A DNA stretch of 63,691 nt, the filler included, from Reclinomonas americana ATCC 50394 (lineage: Eukaryota): NCBI GenBank assembly GCA_048213135.1. It is 20 parts of 20 records of this genome, joined end to end, with 100 filler letters (N's around TTAATTAATTAA, not from the genome) between each part and the next. Parts side by side here need not be neighbours in the genome. Positions count along the whole stretch, not along the records: positions 31,776 to 34,271 come from AFZH01024071.1; positions 34,372 to 37,434 come from AFZH01024072.1; 18 more parts are not named here. One strand, given 5' to 3'. Below, piece by piece: positions 1,881-35,477 of this stretch (within the stretch, counting starts at the first letter, position 1; each line of letters begins with the position of its first letter). The notes beneath the pieces were generated by a model, which worked only from the letters and a program-made list of their open reading frames with translations, had not been told where the DNA came from and did not search any database. The position numbers were made by a program, and so were the translations under genes.

Positions 1881-2297
1881 TCATGCGAGCACGACCTCGC
1901 GCTGCACCGGCACGCGGTTGGTGACGTAGTGCCCGGGTCCGCCGTCGACGCCCGGCATGATCTGCATGTACAGCAGACGCATGGTCAGGACGACCTCGAC
2001 GGTGAGCGCGTCGCCGGCCTGCGGCACCGGGTCGAGGTCGATCAGGACCTCGGGGCGCTCGGCGACGAACCACAGCGTCTCGTGCTGCTCGGGCAGCTCG
2101 TCGACGCGGTACGTGCGTCCCTCGAGCTCGAACCGCAGGGACTCGGTCGGGATCGCGACGCCGTTCACCGTGGCGGCGACGCCGTCGACGGCCGACAGCC
2201 AGAGGCTGCGATACCAGGGCAGCTGCACCGAGACGGCGATGCCGGTGTCGGTGCGGCGGACGTCCTTCTCGGAGAACAGGGAGTTGTGAGTGGCCAT
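1881..2297 (-). CDS. C-glycoside deglycosidase beta subunit (DUF6379; DgpB/CarC-like)
   Basis: 138 aa from ATG at 2297 (MATHNSLF...). Motifs VQLPWYRSLWLSAV and ETLWFV. Lies directly downstream of a TIM-barrel alpha subunit. Its TGA overlaps a possible next ATG (ATGA). Confidence 0.85.
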   Translation of the reverse strand: MATHNSLFSEKDVRRTDTGIAVSVQLPWYRSLWLSAVDGVAATVNGVAIPTESLRFELEGRTYRVDELPEQHETLWFVAERPEVLIDLDPVPQAGDALTVEVVLTMRLLYMQIMPGVDGGPGHYVTNRVPVQREVVLA

Positions 2298-2310
2298 GAG
2301 TGACTCCGAT

Positions 2311-3336
2311 TCAGACCGCGACTGCGGTCTCTTCGATCGCACGACGCATGAGGTCGTGCTGCTTCTTGACGAGGTCGATGGGGTCGCTCTCACCGAGGTC
2401 GGAGAAGGCGTGGCCCTCCCACTCGCTGGAGAGGTAGCCCTGGTAGCCGCCCTCGACGAACTGACGCACGATGCGCGGGATGTCCATGGCCGGCTCCTCC
2501 CCGTCGGGGCCGATGTCGTAGAACTTGGCGTGCACGTGGAAGATCTGCGGCATGATGTCGAGCCATTCCTCCGGCGGCACGAGTCCGTGCATGTTGAAAG
2601 CCAGACGCGTGAACGGACCGAGTCGGGCGAAGTCGAAGTTCTCCGAGGTCAGGAAGTCCTCGAACTTCTGGTTGCGCACGTGCATCGGCGTCGGCTCGTG
2701 CCAGATCTCGTCCATGACCGTGAAGTACTTGTCGGGCATGCCCATCTGCCGCATCGTGCGCAGCAGCGTCGGTGAGAGGGAGTGCATCGTCGACGAGAAG
2801 TCGGCCGTGAAGCCGAGCCGGTCGGACTGCAGCTCGTCGTACATCTCGCGCATCTGCAGCACCTGCGGGTTGTTCGGACCCGACGGCGCGTGGATCTCGT
2901 AGCCCAGCTTCTGGTCGTACTTCTCGGCCAGCGGCAGGAGGCTGCGCAGCAGCTCCTTGCCGTGCGAGCGGATGACGACCTTCTTGAAGCCGAGCGTGTG
3001 CGCGGTCTTCAGCTGGCGGGCGAGGAACTCGTGTTCCTCGTCCGGCGTCATGTCGCGGTCCTTGCGACGACCCATGTCGAGGTTCGTGCCGATGGCGCTG
3101 GGCTCGAAGCCGTAGCGGTCCATGCTGTCGCGCCAGATCTTCACGAAGTCGTCGTCGACATCCGGGTACGAGCGCAGCATCTGCGCGATGTTGAACTCGA
3201 TGCCCGGGCCGAGGCCGTGGTCGGCCGCCGCCTTGATTAGCGTCTCGGGCGTGTAGAGCCCTGCGGCGAATTCGGAGGTGAGCGAGTAGAGCGTGATGCC
3301 GAGCTTGATGCCCGTGCCGGCGATGCCGTCGGTCAT
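2311..3336 (-). CDS. C-glycoside deglycosidase alpha subunit (sugar phosphate isomerase/epimerase TIM barrel; DgpC/CarB-like)
   Basis: 341 aa from MTDGIAGTGIKLGITLYSL. Metal-site motifs YEIHAP, ADFS, HVHAKFY and SSEWEGH. ATGA overlap with the upstream gene at 3333-3336. Confidence 0.85.
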   Translation of the reverse strand: MTDGIAGTGIKLGITLYSLTSEFAAGLYTPETLIKAAADHGLGPGIEFNIAQMLRSYPDVDDDFVKIWRDSMDRYGFEPSAIGTNLDMGRRKDRDMTPDEEHEFLARQLKTAHTLGFKKVVIRSHGKELLRSLLPLAEKYDQKLGYEIHAPSGPNNPQVLQMREMYDELQSDRLGFTADFSSTMHSLSPTLLRTMRQMGMPDKYFTVMDEIWHEPTPMHVRNQKFEDFLTSENFDFARLGPFTRLAFNMHGLVPPEEWLDIMPQIFHVHAKFYDIGPDGEEPAMDIPRIVRQFVEGGYQGYLSSEWEGHAFSDLGESDPIDLVKKQHDLMRRAIEETAVAV

Positions 3337-4368
3337 GCGCGGAGTCCCTTCGTGAGAGCGTGCGGGAGGTGGGCGGCGAGGGCCTGCTGCGCCTCGGCCG
3401 CATCGGTGATCATGCGGCTGCCCGCGTTCTCGGCGGCCGAGCGCTGCACGGCCTGCTCGCCGGCGATGATGTCGAACGGGCTCTGCCAGTGGTTCCAGTG
3501 CCAGCCCTCGTACTCGCTCGACACGGCACCGGAGTAGCCGTTCTCGACGAGCAGTGTGATGAGGTCGCGCACCGGGACCGACGGCTCTTCGCCGTTCTCG
3601 TCGATGCCGAAGAACTTGCCGTGCACGTGCTTGACCCACGGCATGATCTCGAGCCAGTCGTTCACCCGGGCCGGACNNNNNNNNNNNNNNNNNNNNNNNN
3701 NNNNNNNNNNNNNNNNNNNNTTAATTAATTAANNNNNNNNNNNNNNNNNNNNNNNNNNNNNNNNNNNNNNNNNNNNCGCCACGGCGACGGTAGGCCTCGA
3801 TGAGCGACGGCGCGAAGCCCGAGACGGTCGCGCCCCAGTCCATCGTGAAGCCGAGGAACGGCGAGCCGACCTTCTCGTAGCGATCGCGGAGCGCGAGGAT
3901 GCGCGGGTGCGAGGCGTACTGGTCGGCGTGCACCTCGAGCGCGAGCGTGACCCCGTGCTCCTCGGCGATCGGCGCGAGCGCCTCCATCGAGTCGGGGGTG
4001 ATCGAGATCTGCACGCGGGCGATCGGGAAGCCCAGCTTCGCCGCTGCCTTGATCTGCAGGGTCATGTAGTCGATCAGCTCGTCCTGCGTCAGCATCCGAT
4101 CGCGGTGGATGCCGATGTCGGCGTTGACCGCGAGCGACGTCGTGACCAGCCCGACCTCGTCGATCAGGTCGCGGAATCCGCCGGCGAACGCGTCGTCGAT
4201 GTGCGGGAAGCCGCGGAAGCTGGAGAACCCGATGATCTCGAGTCCCGGTCCGTGCCCCTCGGCGGCGACCTTGCGGATCAGCTGCTCGAGGTCGTACTCG
4301 CGACCGTGGAACGCGCGGGTGTAGCTGTAGAGCGTGACACCCTGGATGGGCGTACCGAGAGCGGTCAT
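3333..4368 (-). CDS. Second C-glycoside deglycosidase alpha subunit, split by the spacer at 3677-3776
   Basis: N-terminal part 4368-3777 (MTALGTPIQGVTLYSY...LEVHA...MDWG). C-terminal part 3676-3333 (HVHGKFF...SSEYEGWHW). The halves are complementary and collinear, with ATGA overlaps at both ends. Confidence 0.8.
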
Positions 4369-4843: not shown

Positions 4844-5492
4844 TCAGCCGAGGGTTTCGGCGATCTTCCTGGCTCCGCGAACCGCGAGCGCGACCGACGT
4901 CAGAGTCGGGTTGCATGCCGTCGACGTGGGGATGACGTTGTTGCCCGCGACGAAGAGACCGGGCACGTCCCAGACCTCGCTGTCGGGCGAGCACACACTC
5001 CGACCGTCGTCCGCGAGCCCCATCCGCGTACTCCCCTGATAGTGCAGCGAGGCGCCGGCAGGCATCGTGAACGGACGCTCGTCGAGGGGGTCGCCGACCG
5101 CGCGACCGAGGCGCACGACCTCTTCGCGCGCCCGCTCCATGACCGCATGATCGCGCGGGGTGAGCGTGTAGTGGATCGTCATCGCGGGCATGCCGTAGCC
5201 GTCGACCGCGTCGTCGGAGAACTCGACCCTGTCGTCCCACTGCAGCTCCTTGGCCGTGAAGAGACCGAGCCCGACGATGGACCCGGGCACCACCGGATCG
5301 TCCTCCGCGAGCGGCACCGGCGAGGCGTCGAGCTGCATGATCTGACCGTGGAAGGGCATGGCGTCGGTGAACGGCACCCAGGTGACGCCGCTCTGCTCGC
5401 TCAGTGCGCCGGACGCGGCGACCGCATCCTCTCCACCGGCCTGCACGTCGCGCAGGCGCGACGCGAAGACGATCTGCGTCTGGTCGTTCAGC
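4844..5492 (-). CDS. GMC-family FAD oxidoreductase, pyranose-oxidase-like glycoside 3-oxidase (CarA-type); 5' truncated
   Basis: C-terminal GMC motifs GASLHYQGSTRMG and VPGLFVAGNNVIPTSTACNPTLTSVALAVRGA (catalytic His/Asn pair). Adjacent to C-deglycosidase genes. Confidence 0.85.
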
Positions 5493-27416: not shown

Positions 27417-27537
27417 GATCAAGAAAAAATGACTGAGCGGGACGATTGATTGCGCACACTTCACACCCTTCATGAACGTCGAGTGTCTCTCTGCTGCTGC
27501 TATTTTTTTGGCTGTTTCGGCTCTGCTTTTCTCCTGA

Positions 27538-28285
27538 TTACACAATTGCTTGCAACACGGCCTGCGTCACTTCTGCCGTTCGCGAGCGCACATTGATCTC
27601 CATGCTGACTTCGCCTGGAGAGTGAGGAGAGACCGAGGAAGTGAGTCGCGTGTCTTTTGTTTCTCCCCAGCGCACCACCGCACTCACCAGTTTGGTCGTA
27701 GAAAATGTGCGCGTGCACCAGAGCCAGTGAAGCGTTGAGGTAGCGGCCGGCCAGCAGCAGGATGTGCGTTCGGGCGTCACGCGGCACGGTACCCGAGTTC
27801 TCCTGCGGTCGCATGCCCAGAATGTCGCTGACCGCCTTGACTGCCTCGTCCACTGTCTTCATGGAGGACAGAGTGAGGGTCTCCGTGGCCGAGTGCTCAC
27901 TCATCTCCTCCCACACGGTCTCAAAGTTGGAGATCGAGCAGCCGACCACAAAGTCGGCAAACGACAAGTCCACCTCGTCAATCTGCCACTCGATTCCGTG
28001 AGGACAACGCAAGCGCGCGAACAAAAGAGAGAGAGACGCCCACGTGCTCACCGGGTACTCGTCATCGTAGCCGTCCTCCTCGACGTCTCCGCTCGAATCG
28101 ACCTCCTTCATCACGTACTTGAGCGCGTTGGAGAAGCGTCCGGTCGGCAGCTGCGACATGTCGGTAATGCGGAAGCACACAAACGACGGCAATGAGGTGT
28201 CGCTGTACGCCAGCGCTGGGATGGGCACCGCAAACATCTGCCGAGCCAAACACCGCAAACGTCAGCAACGTGTTATAGAGGAGAG

Positions 28286-28320
<35 letters not shown>

Positions 28321-29372
28321 CGCACCTTGGCCAATCCATCCACCTCGGCCTCCTCCATTACCACCTCGACATTGTCGAGCCGTATTGTGTCGACTGTGTT
28401 GCGGCAGTTGAACTGGAAGACCACGTGCTCGCGGAAGAGGTGCTTCACCACCGTGACCACGTACTCGGTCTCGTCGGGTGTCAGCGCTGCAGGCTCGGTC
28501 GACAACACTGGCGGACCGAGTGCCCTGAGTTCCGGAACAGCCGCCAACACCTCCAGGTACGGATTGACCGTCGGCACGCCACTTGCCGCAGCTCCCGCAG
28601 GTGCGTTCTTGCCAGCACCGCCAGCGGCGCCGGAGGCCAGGGCAGCCACGCCACCAGCAACACTTGCCGGTGCCGCCGACGGCTCTGCTCCAATACCTGA
28701 GCTCTCGGCCATGGCCGCTGCAACGAGGCGAGAGGTGAGTGTCAAATCGTGCATTTTGTTTTGCAAATGCGCTGTCGCGCTCGACTCACTGTACACGGCT
28801 TGATTGGCTTGGATGGCGTCCATGTCGAATGGTTGGCCACGAGTCGCCTGCTCGCGCAGACCGATCTCAAAGGCGCCGAGCGGCACCGGGAACGCATCAA
28901 TCAGGTACTGCTTGATGGTGGCCTCGTCTTGTGACAGGAAGTACACCGAGTAGTTGGCCCGATCGCGCACTTCGTCGTCAGAGTCGTACAGACATCTAAA
29001 GGACCGTGCAGCGAGTTAGCAACAACGGGGGAAAATGTGACGGAACAAAGACAAGAAAACACGCACTTTCTCAGCAACGAGACAATCGACTTTCGCAAAT
29101 CGCGACATGCGGCTGCCACACGAGCGAGCGCCGACACGGCAGCAGCACGCACGCTGGGTGTCTCCAGAATCACACTACACGTCGGTAAACACGTAGGGTG
29201 AGTTCATAGCACGCACAAGGAATGGTGAGAAGTGGCGCACCGATTGTACAGGAACCGAATGCAACGGGCAGGATTGGAGATGGTCGGAATCTCCCGTCCC
29301 AGCAAGTGCAACACGCGCTGGCACAGGACCGGGAACTCGCAGTCTTCGATGAACTCGCACAGGTGGGAAATT
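27538..29372 (-). CDS. COPG: Coatomer subunit gamma, C-terminal exons; 5' truncated
   Basis: HLCEFIEDCEF, LHLLGREIP...CIRFLYNR, VILETPSVRAAAVSALA, CLYDSDDEVRDRA, ETEYVVTVVKH, VFQFNCRNT, GYDDEY and HILLLAG. Confidence 0.93.
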
Positions 29373-31675: not shown

Positions 31676-31775
31676 NNNNNNNNNNNNNNNNNNNNNNNNN
31701 NNNNNNNNNNNNNNNNNNNTTAATTAATTAANNNNNNNNNNNNNNNNNNNNNNNNNNNNNNNNNNNNNNNNNNNN

Positions 31776-34700
31776 CGCCACGTTGGCTCTGGGACGATAC
31801 GACGTGTCGGAGGTGGATGGCCTCTCGCACGGCGTGGACGATTCGTTTGGCTTGCTTCGCGCGTTGGTCTCCAGCGGCAATGTGCTGCACGTGGGCTACA
31901 AGGGCGACTACACGGGCGGTGTTCATTTGGCCGACAGCGCGCTGGTGGTCGACGGGCACAAATCGGTGGGCATCGGCACCATGACGCCCGAATCGAAGTT
32001 ACACGTCGACGGCTCCGTTCGTGTGCCAAAGGGATTGCCGACGACATCGGCCTCCAACAGCGCCGGTTATGGATTCATCGGCGATGGGTGGACGGGCATG
32101 TTTGCCAGTTGCGTCACCGTTTCTCTGTCTCTTCGCCGATCAGGACGCCGACTAACACGCGTTGTGCAGCTGATTCGACGGACCTCACATTGACACAGCT
32201 ATTTCTGACGGCCGGCGGCGTGCAACGGCTTGTTCTTCTCAATGATGCATCGCGACCGGTGGTGGTTCTCGGCGACGTGGACATTACCGGTAGCGCAATT
32301 CATCTGGCCACCTCGCCGGACCTGTCGCCAAATGGCGACAACACCGTGATGTCGATCGACAACACCGGGGCCGTGGTCATTAATCCGTTGCGTTGCTTTC
32401 GTGTTCAATGCTCCCTCTATCCACTGACACGTGCGCCGACTGCAGCTCCGACTCGTTCGACGGCGGCATCCGTTTCGGCACCGATCGCATTGTTGTGCCC
32501 GGCGGTACCTCGCGATTTGTCGGCATTGGAGAGGTCAATCCGGCCGCCTCACTGCACATCAGTGGCGGCACGCGCACCACCAAGGGCAAGCCTATAAGTA
32601 ACGTGAGCGATTTCGGCTACGCCTTCGATGCCGACGGCGACACGGGTCTCTTTGCCGTCGGAGGTGCGTGTCTCTCTCCCGTTGTATGTGCCATGTACCT
32701 TTCCTGGTCGTTTCGCATTGACGATTCCACGCAGGCGGCACAAGTAGCGGAAGCGAGCTCCATCTCATGGTCGACGGCTTCTCTCGTCTCGTGATCCCCA
32801 GCGACCCCAATCTGCCCATGTCGATTGCCGGCGATACGCAGCTGATTGGATCGACGGTCCGTCTCGGCTCCAACATGCTAGTGGCCATGGAGGAACGCTC
32901 CGACACGCGCCTGAGTGTGAATCCACGTAACGAGTTTGTCGGTGGCACGGTGTTTGGCGCCGATCAGGCGTTCTTGGACGGCCCCACTGGCCACTTTGGC
33001 GTCGGCAATCTTGGTTTGGTGGCACTCGGCACGATCCAGTCGGCGGGCGGTGTGCGCGTGGCCAAGGGCCTGGCCACCACCGACACAGATGATGTGGGTC
33101 TCAGCTTTGGCGCCGATGGCAACACGGGCTTTTATGCCATTGGCGGTTTGTGATCGAGTAGCGGTGCTCTGTTTGCGCGCACTTTCACAATACATACTGA
33201 CCTACTATGTCATGTGCACAGGGACGACGTCGAGCGGCAGTACATTGCATCTGCGCGTCGACGGCAACTCACGCATTACCATTCCGCCATTGTCCACCTC
33301 GCCAGTGACCGTGATTGGCGATGCGCTGGTCAGCAACACCAAAGTGTTTCTTGGCTCTGCCGCTCAGTTGGCGCTCGAGGACGTGGCGGGTGTGCAGCAC
33401 ACGCTTGTGGTGAACAGTGGTGACTCGTTTGCCGGTGGTGTGATCCTCGGCAATCAGCGCGTCTCCGTCATACCATCCGGCGGTCTCACACGCATGGGCG
33501 TCGGGCGGTCCGTCTCCGCAGCCCCCGCTGGTACCCTGCAATCTGAAGGTGGCATTCGTGCGAGCAAGGGCCTTCCACTCATGGACACTGACGACGTTGG
33601 CTACACGTTTGCGAGCGACGGCGAGACCGGCATGTTTGCCGTTGGAGGTGTGCGAGTGAGGAGGCCTTGTTATTGTTCGTGCATTCTGCTGTGGCGACTC
33701 ATCACAATCCGCAGGCGACAACTTTAGCTCCTCGTCGTTGCAGTTCGCCGTGGACGCAAACGTGCGTCTCAGTATTCCCCCACTGGCAACTTCACCTCTT
33801 CGCCTGTTTGGTGATGTGGCCATCACCGGCAGCACCATCACGCTGGGGCCATTGGACTCGGACGCTGTGACCTACTCGACCGTCAGTAACCGCCTTATTT
33901 TCAACCCGAACCTGGACTTCTCCGGTGGCTTCCAATTTGGCGACGTCATGATCCTGGAGACCGCCTTGAGTGACGGTTTCCTGGGAGTCGGTCGCGGACT
34001 GGCTCTCACCCCGGCGGCCACCATCCACTCTGCTGGTGGCGTGCGCGTGCGCAAGGGCGCTCCAACGTCAAACGAGGCAAACCTCGGCTACGCGTTCGAC
34101 CTCGATGGAGACACGGGCTTTTTCGCTGAAGGAGGTGCGTGCTAATGCACAATCCAATCTCCCACTGTGTGCCTGCCGCATGTAACCTCTTGAAAAATAG
34201 GGACGAGTTCGGACGGCAGCGATTTGGTTCTCCGCATCGACAACCAGGTCCGTCTCCGCATCCCCCCCACCNNNNNNNNNNNNNNNNNNNNNNNNNNNNN
34301 NNNNNNNNNNNNNNNTTAATTAATTAANNNNNNNNNNNNNNNNNNNNNNNNNNNNNNNNNNNNNNNNNNNNAACGCTCTCTTTCAACGGCAATCCCATGC
34401 TCAGTCAGTCGGGCACCAAAATCCTGCTGGGTTCCATGCAACCGCTCGCCACCTTCGACACGCTGCACTTGGCCGATACTGCCACCGGCATGGTGTGTTT
34501 GTTTTTCTCTCCTTTTTTTTTTCTGTTCTCCTTCGTTCTCTCATGTGCACACAGACGTTGACCAATGCCGGCGGCGCCGGCTGGTTCCTTGGCATCGGCA
34601 TTGCCTCGCCTGCAGCACAAGTACACAACACGGGCGGCTACCGAGCGGCCTCGGGTTCACCCACGGCTGGCAGCGTCTCCAACGTGGGCTACGCCTTTGA

Positions 34701-35404
34701 CACGTTTGGCGACTCGGGTCTCTTTGCCACTGGTTTGTGCTCGAGTGTGCTTATTTTCTGCCCTTCGTTGTCACTCATCGCGCATGACTCTATCCAGTGG
34801 TGGGCCTGGCCGACGCACTTGAGCTGTCCATCCACGGCAACGTGCAGATCCACATGCAAGACAACCTGATCGGCATCACAGAGGTGGCGAGTCATCCAGC
34901 CGTCTCCGCCACCGCCAATATGTCGTGGCTGTACGCGTTGAGTGGACAACCGTTCTGGCGCTCCAGCAGCGGCACGTTGTTCCCGATCGATCTCGGCACG
35001 GCGCTCTCCGACGTACGCCTCAAGCAGAACATCCGGCCTCTGGCACAAGCCGACACGAGCAGCCGTCCATCGCGGGCCGTCGACAGCCTGCGTCTTCTCA
35101 ACCCCGTCACCTACGAGTGGAACTCCACCGGCATGCAGCTGCGCGGACTGTCCGCCAATCGTCGCGAGATCGGCCTTCTCGCCCACGAAGTCGCCGCCGT
35201 GTTCCCCGAACTGGTCGGCCGCTCGCCGAATGCGCAGTACGAAACCGTCGACTACGCTCACCTCACTGCCGTTCTCGTACAAGCCGTCAAGGAGCAACAG
35301 GAGCAGCTGGAGGCACAAGCTGCGGAACTTCGCGACCAGCGCGCTCTTCTCGAAGCCTACCGACGCGAGCTGCAAGAGCAGCGTGCCATGTTTCATGCTC
35401 TTAT

Positions 35405-35474
<70 letters not shown>

Positions 35475-35477
35475 TAA
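31776..35477 (+). CDS. Spliced gene encoding phage tail-fibre-like repeats, Peptidase_S74 intramolecular chaperone, coiled coil and polyQ; 5' truncated, crosses one spacer
   Basis: Six ~140-aa repeats with motifs NP..F.GG..(F/L)G, GIG...P...LH..GG.R..KG.P and GY.F..DGDTG.FA. C-terminus SDVRLKQNIRPL...LLNPVTYEWN...IGLLAHEVAAVFPELV...VDYAHLTAVLVQAVKEQ. GT-AG introns at 32108-32169, 32387-32445, 32664-32734, 33146-33221, 33648-33714, 34135-34200, ~34493-34554 and 34733-34797 all restore the frame. Confidence 0.88.
35406..35471 (+). repeat. (CAG)22 coding polyglutamine tract
   Basis: Perfect CAG run one codon before the TAA at 35475-35477. Confidence 0.95.

Follow-up and report, generated by a model that had tools for sequence, protein, structure and literature searches.

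Predicted introns and repeat exons in a tail-fibre-like gene of Reclinomonas americana

The gene described here lies on the + strand at 31777–35477 of a 63,691-base stretch of DNA from Reclinomonas americana ATCC 50394 (hereafter the window), which is a chain of 20 small contigs (1.5–10 kb) joined by 19 identical linkers (N44-TTAATTAATTAA-N44). Its predicted product is a tail-fibre-like protein in which homologous repeats, R0 to R5, are followed by a C-terminal Peptidase_S74 domain; the coding region is interrupted by eight predicted introns, six of which are in phase 1 and lie just past the same conserved motif, G.FA. The position of these introns relative to the repeats, the distribution of related repeats among prokaryotes, phages and metagenomes, and the order in which introns and repeats may have arisen are considered below.

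Exon–intron structure of the fibre gene

The exon–intron model is a reading of the + strand, spliced by script. It opens at a contig edge with a partial exon for R0 (31777–32107), which is in open frame from the linker onwards, is homologous to R1–R5 and ends in GYGFIGDGWTGMFA. The intron that follows (32108–32169, 62 nt, phase 1) is bounded by GT..AG, contains a branch-like CTAAC motif and splits the first codon past FA. R1 is encoded in two halves of 217 and 218 nt, the first (32170–32386) delimited by splicing and repeat alignment and the second (32446–32663) by repeat homology; between them lies a 59-nt phase-2 intron (32387–32445, GT..AG, with a CTGAC motif) which an earlier, sequence-only reading of this DNA did not contain, and the removal of which restores ...VVINPSDSFDGG..., alignable to the other repeats. 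A 71-nt phase-1 intron (32664–32734, GT..AG) then splits the second G of FAVGG. The next three repeats are each encoded by a single symmetric 1-1 exon: R2 by 32735–33145 (411 nt, 136 residues), R3 by 33222–33647 (426 nt, 141 residues) and R4 by 33715–34134 (420 nt, 139 residues). R2 is followed by a 76-nt phase-1 intron (33146–33221) in the second G of YAIGG, which if retained would bring an in-frame stop at its third codon, R3 by one of 67 nt (33648–33714, phase 1) in the second G of FAVGG, and R4 by an intron of 66 nt (34135–34200, phase 1, GT..AG) in the second G of FAEGG. R5 starts at 34201–34271, where 23 residues align to the starts of other repeats before the contig ends, and is continued on the next contig by two exons placed by repeat homology, its middle (34373–34492) and its end (34555–34732, ...GYAFDTFGDSGLFAT). 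These are separated by a second intron absent from the sequence-only reading (34493–34554, 62 nt, phase 0, GT..AG, pyrimidine-rich). The sixth phase-1 intron (34733–34797, 65 nt) splits the second codon past FA, and the last exon (34798–35477) encodes a short fibre segment, the Peptidase_S74 domain, a coiled-coil-like stretch and a polyglutamine run before the TAA stop.

Two linkers, 31676–31775 and 34272–34371, interrupt the gene, and six repeats are therefore a minimum; the latter joins two contigs, and the real gap behind it may hide further repeats. The bulk of R5, the sixth repeat, is on another contig than the first five. As the two pieces are collinear, the one stopping 23 residues into a repeat and the next opening in the middle of a repeat on the same strand, the adjacency of these contigs is likely.

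The sequence-only reading had proposed that every repeat carries a phase-1 intron at the same position, giving symmetric exons of one repeat each. Its six intron starts (32108, 32664, 33146, 33648, 34135 and 34733) are all GT, with an AG acceptor 62–76 nt downstream (at 32169, 32734, 33221, 33714, 34200 and 34797, respectively), all six introns leave one base of the split codon upstream and lie past G.FA, and the three inner exons are of the lengths it gave, multiples of three encoding one repeat each. Two parts of the proposal hold less widely. The position is identical in R1–R4, at the second G of FAxGG, and is shifted by one or two codons in R0 and R5, with the spacing from the junction to the next conserved block being equal in all six repeats. 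Likewise, symmetric one-repeat exons are confined to R2, R3 and R4, because R1 and R5 carry the two extra introns inside the repeat.

Several features support the predicted junctions as real. All eight introns are GT..AG and 59–76 nt long, most with a CTNAC-like motif 15–30 nt ahead of the AG; their GC content is 0.39–0.58 versus 0.60–0.63 in the exons. In seven of the eight the length is not a multiple of three, so the frame changes at nearly every junction, and in the remaining one, of 66 nt, the fourth codon is a stop; the exons are free of stops. The style (GTGCGT...CTGAC...CAG) is shared with two introns of roughly 67–88 nt in a coatomer-gamma gene elsewhere in the window. Most tellingly for their position, the six spliced junctions read ...DGDTGxFAxGG-xxSSGS-xLxLxVDxxxRLxI, and all six align without gaps to nine uninterrupted copies of the motif from seven relatives of the prokaryote type (such as ...DGDTGMFAVGGSTVENSDLHFKVDNEIKLVV in P0051), which indicates that the intron sits inside an ancestrally contiguous motif and not at a domain border.

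Repeats, S74 domain and relatives

R2–R4 are 37–43% identical to each other (tblastn E 1e-18 to 1e-25). Loops of the form V-G-x-G..P...L are present in every repeat of the window, and the repeats end in a core motif, GIG..P..L.V.GG.R..KG.P....GY.F..DGDTG.FA.GG...S.L.F.VD, which they have in common with prokaryotic and phage fibres. Pfam holds no family matching any repeat exon, a search of PDB sequences with the repeat profile gave only a chance-level row (E 0.13), and a word-index protein search with one repeat and a 15-row alignment, directed at longer proteins, returned nothing, a result that is weak as evidence. Tandem Repeats Finder detected no DNA-level tandem repeat in the gene except a CAG run. 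PHROG matches to the repeats are weak, the best being that of the R0 exon to "tail protein" (E 3.7e-5), and some of the ESM Atlas clusters retrieved with R3 are labelled as phage.

The tail-fibre-like character claimed in the sequence-only reading is borne out by the last exon. It matches Peptidase_S74 (PF13884) over its residues 70–139 with E 2.4e-12 and 47.4 bits (cut-off 22), and it matches 35 PHROG families, mostly tail fibre, with best E values of 4.9e-16 to 1e-12; among PDB sequences it has no match. The Peptidase_S74 match spans about 35007–35216 and begins at SDVRLK (nt 35007–35024), in which the catalytic Ser and Lys are present in the SDxxxK arrangement, given as the Ser/Lys motif of the self-cleaving intramolecular chaperone in those parts of PMC10769870 and PMC3742443 that were available. 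The domain is followed by the coiled-coil-like stretch and polyglutamine.

The polyglutamine run (35405–35472, +) is a perfect stretch of about 23 CAG/GCA codons at the extreme C-terminus, within the portion that S74 self-cleavage would be expected to remove. The spliced product as a whole (31777–35474) comprises 1023 visible residues, has no cysteine and contains four N-x-S/T sequons; with four in 1023 residues, N-glycosylation sequons are not enriched and give no pointer to localisation.

As a single chain R3 is modelled only moderately well: the AlphaFold monomer has a mean predicted local distance difference test score (pLDDT) of 64.8, falling below 50 in the C-terminal half, and it found no fold match (Foldseek against PDB at E <= 0.001; VIA-align against 48,161 chains, best Z 3.0). 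Three copies of the R3 exon product are modelled as an extensively intertwined homotrimer with a score of 0.90 (best of three controls, 0.01), a pLDDT of at least 84 and runs agreeing in at least 85% of contacts. Of 30 proteins solved as one-chain pairs, 21 attained the mark set for this score, as did none of 23 solved as single chains. This calibration was made with two copies rather than three and on microbes rather than eukaryotes, and a protein may pass because it resembles solved fibres. So read, the model supports one exon as encoding one putative module of a trimeric shaft.

Relatives were sought with a profile of R2–R4 among 1.84 billion representative proteins (E <= 0.001), which gave 121 hits, 26 of them at <= 1e-10 and four at <= 1e-30. 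Domain mapping divides the hits into phage or bacterial architectures that hold only the core and 52 of the 121 that hold the long 140-residue unit. The core-only proteins, which carry P2-type Phage_tail_fib, Gp53-like_C, Gp34_trimer, Peptidase_S74 or Por_Secre_tail (type IX secretion system sorting) domains, match profile positions of about 75–141 (~55–65 residues). The sequence-only reading had named a collinear array in prokaryotic homologs as evidence against expansion inside the eukaryote; only the short uninterrupted core, in one to four copies, was found there, and neither the profile search nor the collection scans revealed a collinear array of 140-residue units among prokaryote-type or phage proteins. 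Those scans, of prokaryote genomes, viruses and metagenomes, yielded seven loci, all matching the core motif only. One is an open reading frame (ORF) of Bdellovibrio bacteriovorus (L006) with a single core copy followed by S74, and two are metagenome ORFs (L001 and L002) with two adjacent core-motif units of ~70–110 residues; from the viral collection came nothing but P2-like phage fibres and a single relative at 29% identity. P0122 and P0123, the nearest relatives by S74 (51% and 46% identity), look bacterial and have repeated GNVGIGT motifs.

L001 and L002 are prokaryote-type ORFs of >1300 residues with many repeats of the 'GxxxVTSV/…TYxxxTVDxxGR' type; their core-motif units are set apart by GNVGIGT loops and there is no S74 end.

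The best relatives with the long unit (P0001, P0002, P0005, P0006, P0013 and P0015) have two to five units in tandem, and all 20 relatives that were looked up are singletons from metagenome or run assemblies. Within the window, a tblastn-level search found neither the repeat nor the C-terminal domain again outside 31777–35474. Judged by their sequences, 140-residue arrays are otherwise found only in apparently intron-riddled metagenome fragments. Many of these break off past FA into unrelated sequence such as G-L-C..., an ending likened to intron read-through because the window donor G|GTTTGTG translates identically. Altogether 65 repeat ends could be compared in the relatives: 25 are interrupted near the site, 28 run straight through, eight are of the prokaryote type and four are undecidable.

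P0001 and P0010 are each traced to a longest contig of 1972 bases, and they may be two frames of one intron-split gene on it, which would then have at least four repeats and only one interruption.

Order of events and alternatives

The window gene is probably a nuclear, intron-bearing gene for a trimeric beta-fibre of prokaryote or phage-fibre ancestry, the array of which grew by duplication of exon plus intron in a eukaryote; the donor could have been a bacterium, a phage or a eukaryotic virus. According to this scenario, an uninterrupted core motif of the prokaryote/phage type would have been split just past FA by a short GT-AG phase-1 intron, and the segment already holding this intron would have been duplicated in tandem, long ago, in a eukaryotic ancestor. 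Since the duplicated segment already held the intron, every copy would have inherited it, and the inner copies would form symmetric exons with lengths that are multiples of three. Two more introns would have been added later, and two junctions shifted by one or two codons. The shaft would gain one module with every repeat that an exon encodes, and its chains would be expected to trimerise guided by the C-terminal S74 domain; the domain may then release itself by cleavage at the Ser of SDVRLK, and the coiled coil and the polyglutamine tail with it. The protein would probably serve the cell as an adhesive or structural fibre at its surface or outside it.

What carries the proposed order, intron first and exon duplication within the eukaryote second, is parsimony together with the missing prokaryotic array: with six phase-1 introns lying within 7 nt, the copying of a single intron together with its exon is a far more economical explanation than six separate gains. 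If six introns were placed independently in units of ~420 nt, the chance of all of them falling within the same 7 nt would be about 1e-9. The same order was proposed by the sequence-only reading, and to this extent it is upheld; many repeat ends in relatives read through at the site, though, and timing by tree is weak. Similarly, that the expansion is old agrees with the 37–43% identity of the repeats and with the missing DNA-level tandem repeat. In a tree of 36 full-length units, R2 of the window groups with a unit of P0001 (95/85) and R3 with P0003 (92/81); the pairing of window repeats with repeats of other organisms suggests that the array predates those lineage splits.

A number of observations weigh against this scenario. 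The codon split is identical in only four of six introns, and the two introns specific to single repeats imply that some intron gain or loss came later than duplication. No more than three of the 33 inner branches of the tree are well supported. Grouping the four window repeats in a single clade is not rejected by the approximately unbiased (AU) test (p 0.746), which is compatible with both orders of events, and the tree so constrained even scored better than the quick free one. Among eukaryote-like relatives, 28 of the 53 decidable repeat ends continue into the following repeat without a break; in P0001 the unit that pairs with R2 in the tree has no interruption after it, and the next boundary is interrupted about seven codons earlier, from which it follows that intron presence is not uniform in the family. 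The uninterrupted relatives may reflect intron loss, later gain elsewhere or contigs derived from RNA. Moreover, all junctions are deduced from the genomic sequence, the contigs are likely adjacent across the linkers on the basis of collinearity, and the gene runs off the contig edge at 31776, which places the N-terminus, any signal peptide and the location in the cell outside the available sequence.

An alternative that we regard as unlikely reverses the order: an array inherited from the donor, or built without introns, would have come first and the six introns would have been inserted independently at a proto-splice site (G|G) past FA, for example by an intron-generating transposon. Such elements are known in protists, as stated in the accessible portion of PMC12130899, and independent gains would account for the 3- and 6-nt differences among the three junction positions, for the two introns confined to single repeats and for the many relatives with uninterrupted repeat boundaries; also, prokaryote and phage relatives already have two to four core copies, two of them adjacent in L001 and L002. 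It is nevertheless very improbable that six independent insertions would all land within 7 nt in a unit of ~420 nt, and no prokaryote-type hit has an array of 140-residue units. In addition, pairwise alignment detected no sequence shared among the introns, which speaks against recent intron-generating elements.

The second alternative bears on the surroundings of the gene, which can be described only piecewise. Neighbouring pieces of the window are often unrelated, so arguments from synteny across linkers are unsafe. A Pfam scan of 67 long ORFs in the window revealed a mixture, some pieces looking bacterial and others eukaryotic, the latter including a WD40 protein and the intron-split coatomer-gamma appendage at 27503–29015, for which the ESM Atlas clusters carry no label beyond 'Eukaryota'. 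Among the bacterial-looking pieces is an uninterrupted AcrB/ACR_tran ORF of 685 residues (19836–21890, − strand; E 5.6e-192; GC content at third codon positions 0.91), and others, at 1884–3675 (−) and 4847–5491 (−), encode a C-glycoside deglycosidase beta subunit, a xylose-isomerase-like TIM barrel and a GMC oxidoreductase C-terminus. Their presence in a eukaryote assembly may be due to contamination or a symbiont. The piece ahead of the fibre contig (30478–31675, +) has a long Pro/Ser/Ala-rich ORF starting from ATG (MSDEDD...) and a second frame reaching the linker; the ORF had no family match in the Pfam scan. This piece may encode the 5′ end of the fibre gene, which would then be without a signal peptide, or it may belong to another gene.

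We think it improbable, to about the same degree as independent intron gain, that this fibre gene belongs to an endogenous virus of eukaryotes, such as a polinton-like virus, virophage or giant virus, instead of being a domesticated gene of the host. Fibres ending in Peptidase_S74 and built of repeated modules are ubiquitous in protist-integrated polinton-like viruses, according to the part of PMC12220804 at hand, and this is what recommends the idea. It does not fit well with eight introns of spliceosomal type in the style of the host, with closest S74 relatives that look bacterial, or with a viral collection that gave only P2-like phage fibres and the one relative at 29% identity; nor did ORFs within roughly 2 kb on either side of the gene match any viral hallmark or virion family, the flanks being short (contigs of 2.5 and 3.1 kb). 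That the introns are not spliced at all, and that the locus is a bacterial or phage gene either decayed to a pseudogene or distorted by assembly, is very improbable: the junctions are known from DNA sequence only and the fragmentary assembly does include bacterial-type contigs such as that of the AcrB-type ORF, but all eight interruptions are GT..AG with a narrow size range and branch-like motifs, and their removal restores the conserved motif at exact spacing in six of six junctions and leaves stop-free exons.

Returning to duplication of exon plus intron as the source of the array, the three symmetric inner exons would be compatible in frame with exon skipping, which had been proposed as a way of tuning fibre length and is possible in principle. 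In genomes with such short introns, intron retention and not exon skipping is mostly seen.

If splicing is real, the gene is a clean natural case of a prokaryote/phage-type gene remodelled after its entry into a eukaryote, in which an intron landed in a conserved motif and copying of exon plus intron extended a trimeric fibre step by step without loss of frame. Another point of interest is that current annotation has no name for the family of eukaryotic S74 fibres to which the gene points. We suggest tentatively, and with more doubt than confidence, that the window gene and the metagenome fragments represent an undescribed family of protist trimeric fibres, which was derived from fibres of the mosaic adhesive trimer (MAT) type or of phages, has an exon-duplicated shaft and serves the cell itself, for instance as an adhesin, with S74 kept as a folding check; were this so, the protein might be a surface adhesin for recognition of prey, host or substrate. 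A search of the literature by titles and abstract openings found no intron-bearing nuclear S74 fibre gene with duplicated exons, nor the combination of a prokaryote/phage-type fibre in a eukaryote with an intron inside a motif and an exon-duplicated shaft. As duplication of symmetric exons is a textbook principle, the value of the case lies in the example and the family and not in a new mechanism; as a case of a borrowed gene of microbial type that grew through duplicated exons, it is tidy, not unprecedented.

Comparison with known systems

Like phage fibres and tailspikes such as the K1F endosialidase and the L-shaped fibre of T5, the window gene has a C-terminal S74 domain with the Ser..Lys motif; its shaft is predicted to be beta-rich and trimeric, its last exon matches PHROG tail-fibre families and its repeats have the core motif in common with P2-like fibres. 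Unlike phage tail fibres, it is probably nuclear, has eight predicted introns and is without detected virion genes in its ~2-kb flanks, its 140-residue repeat belongs to no Pfam family, and a polyglutamine tail extends past S74. By its sequence it is thus best described as an S74-terminated fibre gene and not as a phage virion gene.

The nearest cellular analogues appear to be the MAT fibres of Bdellovibrio bacteriovorus, the S74 subgroup of which is likewise cellular, non-viral and provided with an SDxxxK S74 end, as described in the available part of PMC10769870. Further points of likeness are the core copy followed by S74 in the B. bacteriovorus ORF L006 and the V-G-x-G..P...L loops of the window repeats. 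MAT fibres, in the same source, are intron-free bacterial proteins that carry a signal peptide and, at the N-terminus, a conserved domain of about 130 residues; L006 holds only one core copy, while the window gene holds an array of 140-residue units. The fibres of polinton-like viruses and virophages resemble the gene in that they occur in eukaryote genomes and have repeated modules before a terminal S74 (PMC12220804, in part). These fibres, however, are viral, and their modules (laminin_G_3, collagen, adenovirus fibre and others) differ from the window repeat; spliceosomal introns, of which the window gene has eight, are not mentioned in the accessible sections of that paper.

MYRF/MrfA offers a precedent for a phage-type S74 (ICA) domain in a eukaryotic nuclear gene, where it serves trimerisation and self-cleavage through a Ser/Lys dyad, judging from excerpts of PMC3742443. 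There, the domain is joined to a membrane anchor and to a DNA-binding domain of the NDT80 type, whereas the S74 domain of the window gene keeps its context at the end of a fibre shaft. Finally, the gene resembles the classical symmetric 1-1 exon arrays, characterised, in the part of PMC3632108 consulted, by homologous exons with phase-1 flanks and lengths that are multiples of three: its consecutive exons of 411, 426 and 420 nt are homologous and in one phase. It departs from those arrays in that its module is of prokaryote/phage-fibre origin and the intron lies within an ancestral motif, not at a domain border.

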